Virus record (IMG/VR): IMGVR_UViG_644736364_000003
Source of the DNA: a virus
Taxonomy: Duplodnaviria; Heunggongvirae; Uroviricota; Caudoviricetes
Length of the DNA stretch: 46,137 bases
Direction: 5' to 3' (one strand)
In this document: piece by piece, positions 42,681 through 43,498 of the stretch
Layout of the letters: every line of letters begins with the position of its first letter
Position numbering within the stretch: position 1 is the stretch's first letter
Translations under genes and position numbers: made by a program
Notes under the pieces: generated by a model
Database searches by the model: none
What the model was told of the DNA's origin: nothing
Seen by the model: the letters and a program-made list of their open reading frames with translations, nothing else

Positions 42681-42699
42681 ATTTTATAACCCCAATACG

Positions 42700-42728
42700 G
42701 GCGCCAGAAATGGTGCCTTTTTTATTGC
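42700..42728 (+). terminator. Putative terminator after J
   Basis: GGCGCC-agaaat-GGTGCC hairpin followed by TTTTTTATT. Confidence 0.45.
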
Positions 42729-42747
42729 AGAAAAGCGAGAGGTAATT

Positions 42748-43347
42748 ATGCGTAAATTATGTGCTGTTATTCTGTCCGCAGTAGTCTGGCTGGTTGCCGC
42801 TGGTACGCCAGTGAGCGCAGCAGAGCATCAGTCCACACTAAGCGCCGGGTATCTTCAGACCCACACTGATATGCCAGGCAGCGATAATCTGAACGGGATT
42901 AACGTGAAATACCGTTATGAGTTTACGGACGCGCTGGGGCTGATTACGTCCTTCAGTTATGCCAATGCTGAGGATGAGCAAAAAACGCACTACAGCGATA
43001 CCCGCTGGCATGAAGATTCCGTGCGTAACCGCTGGTTCAGCGTGATGGCGGGGCCATCTGTACGCGTGAATGAATGGTTCAGTGCTTATGCGATGGCAGG
43101 TGTGGCTTACAGCCGTGTGTCGACGTTCTCCGGGGATTATCTCCGCGTAACTGACAACAAGGGGAAAACGCACGATGTGCTGACCGGAAGTGATGACGAT
43201 CGCCACAGCAACACGTCTCTGGCGTGGGGAGCTGGCGTGCAGTTTAACCCGACCGAATCCGTGACCATTGATATTGCTTATGAAGGTTCCGGTAGTGGCG
43301 ACTGGCGAACGGATGCATTTATTGTTGGTATCGGATACCGTTTCTGA
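42748..43347 (+). CDS. lom: Lom outer-membrane protein (Ail/Lom/PagC family)
   Basis: 199 aa; signal peptide then ...GINVKYRYEFTD...AYEGSGSGDWRTDAFIVGIGYRF matching lambda Lom. Confidence 0.85.
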   Translation: MRKLCAVILSAVVWLVAAGTPVSAAEHQSTLSAGYLQTHTDMPGSDNLNGINVKYRYEFTDALGLITSFSYANAEDEQKTHYSDTRWHEDSVRNRWFSVMAGPSVRVNEWFSAYAMAGVAYSRVSTFSGDYLRVTDNKGKTHDVLTGSDDDRHSNTSLAWGAGVQFNPTESVTIDIAYEGSGSGDWRTDAFIVGIGYRF

Positions 43348-43454
43348 CAACAGACGCCGATTTATCTTCTGTAAATATTGTTATGATACGCAGGTTCATC
43401 CGCCTTATGGGGTGAACTGCGTTTGAGGAAACGTAAAGTTACACTGTCCTGAAG

Positions 43455-43490
43455 CCCGTGGCGTCACTGCTGCGGGCTTTTTTTATTGGT
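43455..43490 (+). terminator. Putative terminator after lom
   Basis: AGCCCG...CGGGCT stem followed by T7. Confidence 0.4.
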
Positions 43491-43498
43491 GGAAAAGT

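Follow-up and report, generated by a model that had tools for sequence, protein, structure and literature searches.

A lambda-type lom cassette with predicted flanking terminators and no recognisable sigma-70 promoter in a lambdoid prophage

The position of lom between J and stf in phage lambda, the terminators on either side of the gene and its expression in lysogens already belong to textbook lambdoid biology. Lambda lom is the classic accessory gene expressed in lysogens (PMC1151598), and its transcription in lambda lysogens has been described (PMC1151598, PMC7067206). Little is known of its promoter, which has apparently never been defined, and lom was not detected in an array study of a lambda lysogen (PMC2147009). 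An unrelated lom gene, that of phage phi24B, was reported to be constitutively expressed in lysogens (PMC4651098). Phenotypes of adhesion, invasion and serum resistance come from literature on lambda Lom, taken here as it is cited in PMC1151598 and PMC3594210. Other accessory genes, those of HK97 and HK022, are known as morons after the definition of Juhala et al. 2000, which we use in the form summarised in PMC3594210. Here we analysed the lom locus of IMG/VR virus record IMGVR_UViG_644736364_000003, a stretch of 46,137 nucleotides (nt) referred to below as the window, which is a lambdoid Escherichia coli prophage. The original prediction held that lom of this prophage is a moron forming an independent transcription unit, that terminators lie on both sides of it and that the arrangement is that of lambda. 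The analysis points to a mobile lom cassette that begins at a selected terminator-like hairpin and in which no promoter could be recognised.

In the window, J, lom and stf follow each other in this order on the + strand (list of open reading frames (ORFs); Table 1), and the lambda segment J-lom-stf (orf-401; NC_001416 18904-19649) has the same gene order and the same Lom family. Between lambda J and lom, a hairpin CGTCCGGGAACGGGCG followed by TTTTATT abuts the Shine-Dalgarno sequence and is analogous to the hairpin found at the 5' side of lom in the window. Between lambda lom and stf, a GC-rich hairpin GCCCGCCGGAACCGGTGGGC followed by T6 is the equivalent of the 3' terminator of the window. 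The sequence of the lambda 5' spacer is unlike that of the window, and a TATAAA present there is missing from the window allele. The likeness to lambda therefore held for the gene order and for the presence of a hairpin and T tract at both places, but not for the downstream spacer, which is 151 nt long in the window compared to 64 nt in lambda, in K-12 Rac and in Sakai Sp15.

The two hairpins were ranked 1 and 2 in a terminator scan of positions 38000-46137. Both face the + strand, each lies exactly within one of the two intergenic spacers around lom, and each has the complete anatomy of an intrinsic terminator in the sense orientation alone. The 5' hairpin (GGGCGCCAGAAATGGTGCCT then TTTTTTATT) has 8 pairs, including 5 GC pairs, and a folding free energy (dG) of -13.8 kcal/mol; the 3' hairpin (GAAGCCCGTGGCGTCACTGCTGCGGGCTTT then TTTTTTTATT) has 12-13 pairs, including 7 GC pairs, and a dG of -20.5 kcal/mol. 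Loose terminator-like matches showed no overall enrichment in 41500-44800 (6 compared to 3.4 +/- 1.7 in shuffles). The tails of the hairpins (5' tail GCCTTTTTTATTGC, 3' tail GCTTTTTTTATTGG) form a direct repeat, GCYTTTTTTATTG, that flanks the lom cassette. By their anatomy, both elements are predicted to be intrinsic terminators. The rank of the hairpins, their energies, their T tracts and the covariation of the 5' stem described below all agree with the proposal that lom has terminators on both sides.

To describe variation at the locus we used 80 IMG/VR loci and 14 genome loci carrying close Lom relatives, plus loci retrieved with DNA patterns. Across 21 distinct variants of the 5' hairpin, 99.4% of the cells pair. 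The stem occurs as GCGCC/GGCGC, GCGTC/GACGC and GCACC/GGTGC and as G-U intermediates, of which the window is one, and in one variant a base is lost from both arms. Two pairs vary on both sides (GC/GU/AU and CG/UA/UG). Because this covariation score was reached by none of 500 shuffles and register-shifted controls dropped to 33-63% pairing, the 5' stem is kept by selection as a structure. The Shine-Dalgarno sequence GAGAGG is unchanged across all variants and in lambda. The 5' hairpin, the T tract, GAGAGG and the ATG are also unchanged behind unrelated J 3' ends (loci L060, L091, L092 and L163), and the left border of the conserved block lies only about 10 nt upstream of the 5' stem. Since this block with the same hairpin follows unrelated J ends, the 5' hairpin is assigned to the lom cassette and travels with lom rather than with J.

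Two relatives lack lom. Phage PhiR12_2_star has 182 nt between J and a stf-type gene, and this spacer ends in a terminator of its own; in Serratia phage Serbin, a J-like gene is followed after 15 nt by a PF08400 tail fibre gene. These relatives, in which J stands directly before a stf-type gene, show that lom was added at this place. A terminator ahead of stf is not specific to lom, because PhiR12_2_star also has one. The spacer of PhiR12_2_star (locus L230, 1319-1500) shares with the P-EibA type of stf only the T tract of the terminator and the ribosome-binding site, which are equal in the two. In two loci of Shigella flexneri SFBU0723 (L101 and L106), the Lom match is just 56% or 38% identical, and the flanks (5' hairpin, ribosome-binding site and short 3' spacer) are still near-identical to the common type; these lom loci may be decayed genes.

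We then considered where a lom promoter could lie. The last nucleotide of the 5' stem is 42718 and that of the T tract 42726; the Shine-Dalgarno sequence begins at 42737 and lom itself, with its ATG, at 42748. With just 29 nt from the 5' stem to the ATG, and 10 nt from the T tract to the Shine-Dalgarno sequence, no room for a promoter is apparent between the 5' terminator and lom. A sigma-70 consensus scan of 41500-44800 gave no + strand site; scans of this kind are consensus-based and would let activator-dependent, alternative-sigma or J-internal promoters escape. No positionally conserved promoter site was found among six J contexts, including that of lambda. With an approximate weight matrix, the top site upstream of lom was CTGATA-17-TGAAAT at 42459-42487, inside J, with a TG two bases upstream. 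It was rejected as weak: it is devoid of the A at -11 (position 2), fails the consensus scan and is not conserved across J types. Two other candidates were discarded. A possible sigma-54 promoter, TGGTGCC...TTGCA within the 5' hairpin, was rejected by eye, as its GG-to-GC distance is about 15 nt compared to about 11 and it has no lambda counterpart, and a promoter-like site on the minus strand (43350-43321, 9/12) is at chance level. The unrelated phi24B lom served as a positive control of sorts: it has strong promoter-like sites 43-65 nt ahead of its ATG, in an AT-rich spacer. In lambda, the TATAAA lies 23 nt ahead of the lom ATG with no -35, and the window allele has TTATTGCAG there.

Combined, these results indicate that the lom cassette carries no recognisable sigma-70 promoter. 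The proposal that lom is an independent transcription unit is thus not borne out by the sequence, because no promoter is evident, and two terminators alone are not sufficient to define such a unit. The description of lom as a moron stands in part: the gene is an added one and has a downstream terminator, but its GC content is like that of its neighbours and no promoter of its own was detected. Since a selected terminator hairpin, placed 29 nt ahead of the ATG, forms the start of the mobile cassette, lambda-type lom genes should not be presumed to have a promoter of their own.

We lean towards the following interpretation. The window would carry a lambda-type lom cassette between J and stf, laid out as a 5' hairpin with T tract, a Shine-Dalgarno sequence, lom, a 3' untranslated region and a strong terminator, in which the terminators would insulate the gene, any expression in lysogens would depend on read-through and no self-contained promoter unit is present. 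Reading through terminators by Q-modified RNA polymerase from pR' is established lambda biology. By analogy, during lytic growth such a polymerase would ignore both terminators of the cassette, and lom would be co-transcribed and translated with the tail genes, using its strong Shine-Dalgarno sequence. In the repressed prophage, both terminators would serve as insulators: the 5' hairpin would stop or attenuate unmodified polymerase arriving from J, and the 3' terminator would bar lom transcripts from stf. A lysogenic lom transcript, if any is made, would start upstream of the 5' hairpin or inside it and continue by partial read-through; it would have to start upstream of an intrinsic terminator because no promoter fits before lom. 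Several points weigh against this interpretation. The transcription of lom described in lambda lysogens (PMC1151598, PMC7067206) argues for some lysogenic promoter at least in the lambda allele, and the classes of promoter that escape consensus-based scans, given above, could supply one. The lambda TATAAA might be a weak -10, one that the window allele lacks. Moreover, terminator function, read-through and Q dependence are all predicted here.

Alternatively, lom could be driven in the repressed prophage by a promoter lying in the 3' end of J or close by, uncoupled from late transcription, with the 3' terminator ending the transcript. The expression in lysogens reported for lambda lom and for the unrelated phi24B lom (PMC1151598, PMC7067206, PMC4651098) agrees with such an autonomous moron, as do the addition of lom relative to PhiR12_2_star and Serbin and the strong 3' terminator; the weak J-internal site at 42459-42487 could be the promoter, and an activator-dependent promoter would be missed by the consensus scans. 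However, the stretch from the 5' terminator to the ATG is too short to hold a promoter, the J-internal site is not recovered by the consensus scan and has no A at the critical -11 position, and no site is conserved across J types. A transcript coming from J would further have to pass a hairpin-T6 terminator maintained by selection; the GC content of lom is not distinct, and the mobile cassette starts at the selected hairpin and not at a promoter. We consider autonomous expression of this type rather unlikely. The flanking hairpins could also be mainly module junctions or recombination linkers, or stabilisers of mRNA 3' ends acting as barriers to 3' exonucleases in processed late mRNA. In favour of this, the tails form the direct repeat GCYTTTTTTATTG, and mosaic breakpoints lie in or beside the hairpins: homology between Sakai Sp15 and the corresponding prophage of strain ATCC 35150 picks up again within the terminator's 3' arm, PhiR12_2_star has only the T tract and ribosome-binding site in common with the P-EibA type, and the flanks are near-identical where the Lom match is 38-56% identical. 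Yet the compensatory changes in the 5' stem indicate selection on pairing, beyond sequence, both elements have full terminator anatomy in the sense orientation only, and the low-identity loci are from Shigella and possibly decayed genes. A role mainly as junctions or stabilisers is therefore improbable in our view, and it would be compatible with terminator function in any case. The insulated lom cassette, with read-through behind any lysogenic expression, remains the interpretation that we prefer.

The lom-stf spacer of the window contains an extra cassette of about 134 nt (about 43338-43471) that lambda, K-12 Rac and Sakai Sp15 do not have. Past the stop codon of lom, a promoter-like conserved block carries an extended -10, TGTTATGAT (43379-43387), with an approximate weight-matrix score at the 99.85th percentile of the window. 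In sister lineages the corresponding sequences are TGTTATAAT, TGGTATAAT and TGCTATAAT, that is TGnTATAAT with n = T, G or C; the extended -10 is kept in 4 of 5 lineages and degraded or lost in the SCU-106 lineage. It is followed by a hairpin (hairpin 1), in which variation within the window lineage is confined to the loop, by a mostly unpaired stretch and by the lom terminator. Mean identity among the 5 lineages was 57% in the 14 nt past the lom stop codon, 83% in the promoter block, 85% in the hairpin, 90% in the unpaired stretch and 93% in the terminator, the hairpin and unpaired-stretch values being partly inflated since the retrieval pattern for part of the set lies there. The 101 nt of 43390-43490 fold with -41 kcal/mol (z = -3.8). 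Of 5426 complete E. coli genomes, 1649 (about 30%) have the long spacer at >=80% coverage, CFT073 and many O157:H7 strains among them. In the yehV-type prophages of O157:H7, that of ATCC 35150 (L004) and Sakai Sp15 (L011) are 98.8% identical on the left and 94.7% on the right of the spacer, and differ by a clean swap of the 151-nt for the 64-nt type at about window positions 43338-43471, homology resuming inside the 3' arm of the terminator. In IMG/VR locus L150, the long spacer lies behind lom although the next gene is not stf. Because of this clean swap and of the arrangement in L150, the long-spacer cassette is regarded as a discrete unit associated with lom.

It is possible, though we hold the idea only tentatively, that this cassette is a self-contained candidate small RNA (sRNA) gene, giving a transcript of about 95 nt from about 43393 that lysogens would produce irrespective of lom and of late transcription. 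The candidate may consist of a 5' hairpin and a conserved unpaired UUUGAGGAAACGUAAAGUUACACUGUCC, and the lom terminator would provide its 3' end and a U7 tail. A plainer reading is that the spacer holds two tandem terminators and a chance -10 box. Three observations count against an sRNA: the predicted start (about 43392-43394) falls in the lower stem of hairpin 1, none of 32 pairs covaries and no target was found. In the RNAalifold analysis, 0 of the 32 pairs were changed on both sides, the sequences being too similar to offer any informative pair (0 informative pairs), and k-mer complementarity to targets inside the window was at chance level. Rfam searches at gathering and permissive E-values gave nothing credible in either spacer flanking lom; none of the 40 matching records listed, CFT073 included, had an RNA annotation at the long spacer; and a full-text literature search for the sequence of the spacer element returned no paper. 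Described RNAs and loci were also compared and set aside. HnrS (EcOnc10-12) sits after the endopeptidase gene in Sakai Sp9, away from lom. None of the other Hfq-bound EcOnc peaks of Sakai was placed at a lom-stf spacer, the spacer of Sp15 being short and the Sakai prophages not all mapped. The phi24B RNA 24B_1 gave no alignment with the window spacer, and the lomR-stfR locus of K-12 Rac, with its short spacer, could not be used as a model. If expressed, the RNA of the long spacer would be a widespread prophage sRNA, joining AgvB, AsxR, StxS and HnrS that rewire host regulation, and the long lom-stf spacer is the sole part of the locus that merits experiment.

The identification of a Lom-family outer-membrane gene between J and stf was confirmed by ORF coordinates and by Pfam, PHROG and PDB matches. 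The product aligns with Pfam Ail_Lom PF06316 from residue 1 to 199 on profile positions 1-199 (423 bits, E 2e-127, compared to a curated cut-off of 23 bits) and with PHROG 108, 'Lom outer membrane protein' (E 5e-106). It is 43% identical to lambda Lom, which it matched end to end in the PDB (9wso, E 1e-47), and residues 26-199 align with the solved barrels of Yersinia Ail (3qra) and OmpX. As read from the sequence, a signal peptide covers about residues 1-24 (MRKLCAVILSAVVWLVAAGTPVSA) and is followed by AEH; the C-terminus GIGYRF ends on an aromatic residue. The product is thus predicted to be the full-length precursor of an eight-stranded Ail/Lom outer-membrane barrel with a signal peptide. 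Because its scores fall under the NCBIfam equivalog cut-offs (Rck, 116 bits compared to 258; OmpX, 107 compared to 176), the allele is classified as a Lom-type family member and as an ortholog of neither Rck nor OmpX. The GC content of lom is 53.0%, compared to 51.7% in the last 600 nt of J, 54.0% in the first 600 nt of stf and 51.8% in the window. The nearest phage record is Escherichia phage PhiR49_2, with 98.1% identity over 42600-43560 and the annotation J / Lom / side tail fiber, and the allele is near-identical to hundreds of sequenced prophages. Chain C of 9wso is the solved lambda Lom; the searches with J and Stf gave no match to that entry. The J product has the full set of Pfam lambda gpJ domains, including Ig_GpJ_C at residues 1100-1230, and PDB matches to lambda gpJ, and the Stf product has a PDB match to the N-terminus of the lambda tail fibre (9e7m).

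Table 1. Features of the J-lom-stf region, in window coordinates.
Feature	Position	Strand	Details
J stop codon	42678..42680	+	J ORF 38988-42680, tail tip attachment protein; ORF list
5' intrinsic-terminator-like hairpin, part of the lom cassette	42699..42726 (stem-loop 42699-42718)	+	T6-A-TT tail
Shine-Dalgarno sequence GAGAGG	42737..42742	+	5 nt ahead of lom ATG; read from sequence
lom, predicted 199-residue Ail/Lom-family outer-membrane beta-barrel precursor	42748..43347	+	Pfam PF06316, PHROG 108, PDB
Promoter-like conserved block	43364..43387	+	extended -10: TG 43379-43380, TATGAT 43382-43387; no good -35
Hairpin 1 of the long spacer, CGCAGGTTCATCC...GGGGTGAACTGCG	43389..43421	+	dG -17.5 kcal/mol
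Conserved, mostly unpaired stretch TTTGAGGAAACGTAAAGTTACACTGTCCT	43422..43450	+	putative seed region if an sRNA is made
3' intrinsic terminator (predicted)	43451..43487 (stem-loop 43451-43480, T7 43478-43484)	+	top-ranked site of the scan
stf, side tail fibre gene, 686 residues	43499..45559	+	Pfam phage_tail_N, residues 1-131, 229 bits

Other observations were made in the window. A 16-nt direct repeat is found with one copy inside J (GCTGAAATTTATAACC, 42480-42495) and the other across the J stop (GCTGAATTTTATAACC, 42676-42691); the copies match at 15/16 positions, 196 nt apart, with about 0.01 expected in a 1.26-kb stretch by rough estimate, and may be the trace of an alternative or former end of J. 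Downstream of lom, GC falls from about 55% to 39-45% across 44250-45600, in the part of stf that encodes the C-terminal half and in a pair of small ORFs beyond it (at 45556-45834 and from 45844 on; assigned to PHROGs 1361 and 1443, both of unknown function). Behind stf there is no tfa gene of the lambda type. Because of the GC drop in its C-terminal half, stf is suggested to have a mosaic, recently exchanged receptor-binding end. Between J and the tail assembly gene I, a gap of 343 nt (38645-38987) is non-coding. On the minus strand of this gap, a near-consensus promoter TTCACA-16-TATAAT (38782 to 38755, 11/12) and a terminator (38676 to 38660, then T7) together predict a transcript of about 95 nt (38748 to 38652) that would run antisense to the late operon. 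The I-J gap of Sakai Sp15 carries the EcOnc22 family, Hfq-bound RNAs of about 85 nt that are likewise encoded opposite to the late genes (Tree 2014 Table S2). The gap of the window is 71% identical to that of Sp15 over 212 nt, with the EcOnc22 peak outside the alignment, and gave no Rfam match.

Three tRNA genes lie at 15595-15841, and within 300 nt of them STnc100 (15920-16128, +) and a match to AsxR (16131-16183, -; 63 bits, exactly the gathering score). AsxR was described beside stx2 in Sp5 (PMC4104026). Because there is no space for toxin genes between the tRNAs and the sRNAs, 15595-16183 looks like a toxin-less relative of the AsxR region of Sp5. Two tandem pairs of isrK and C4-antisense RNA, about 866 nt apart and above the Rfam gathering scores, are found at 6645-6833 and 7511-7696, so that 6645-7696 is a duplicated immunity or anti-repressor control region.

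Compared with described systems, the window Lom shares with the Ail/OmpX/Rck/PagC proteins (PF06316, PF13505) the full-length match, the signal peptide, the C-terminal aromatic residue and the barrel matches. Unlike the HK97 and HK022 morons, the window lom has no detectable promoter of its own and no deviant GC content, and the conserved 5' element of its cassette is a terminator-like hairpin and not a promoter. Like these morons, it is inserted between genes that are adjacent in relatives, is followed by a terminator and has a product useful to the host and not to the virion. MicL and DapZ are sRNAs that arise at gene 3' ends from a promoter paired with a terminator. StxS is an sRNA from a phage late region (PMC7547250), and 24B_1, a 20-nt RNA on the opposite strand, comes from the spacer after lom of the Stx phage phi24B (PMC4426718). 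24B_1 is a precedent for an sRNA behind a phage lom, without sequence relation to the window spacer: the phi24B lom is a different allele of 244 residues, and its 428-nt spacer does not align with that of the window. Unlike RNAs of the MicL, DapZ and StxS type, the candidate of the long spacer is predicted from sequence and has neither an Rfam family nor compensatory changes. Like them, it would share its terminator with the upstream mRNA and have its own -10 just past the stop codon, and its long U tail would resemble those of Hfq-dependent sRNAs.

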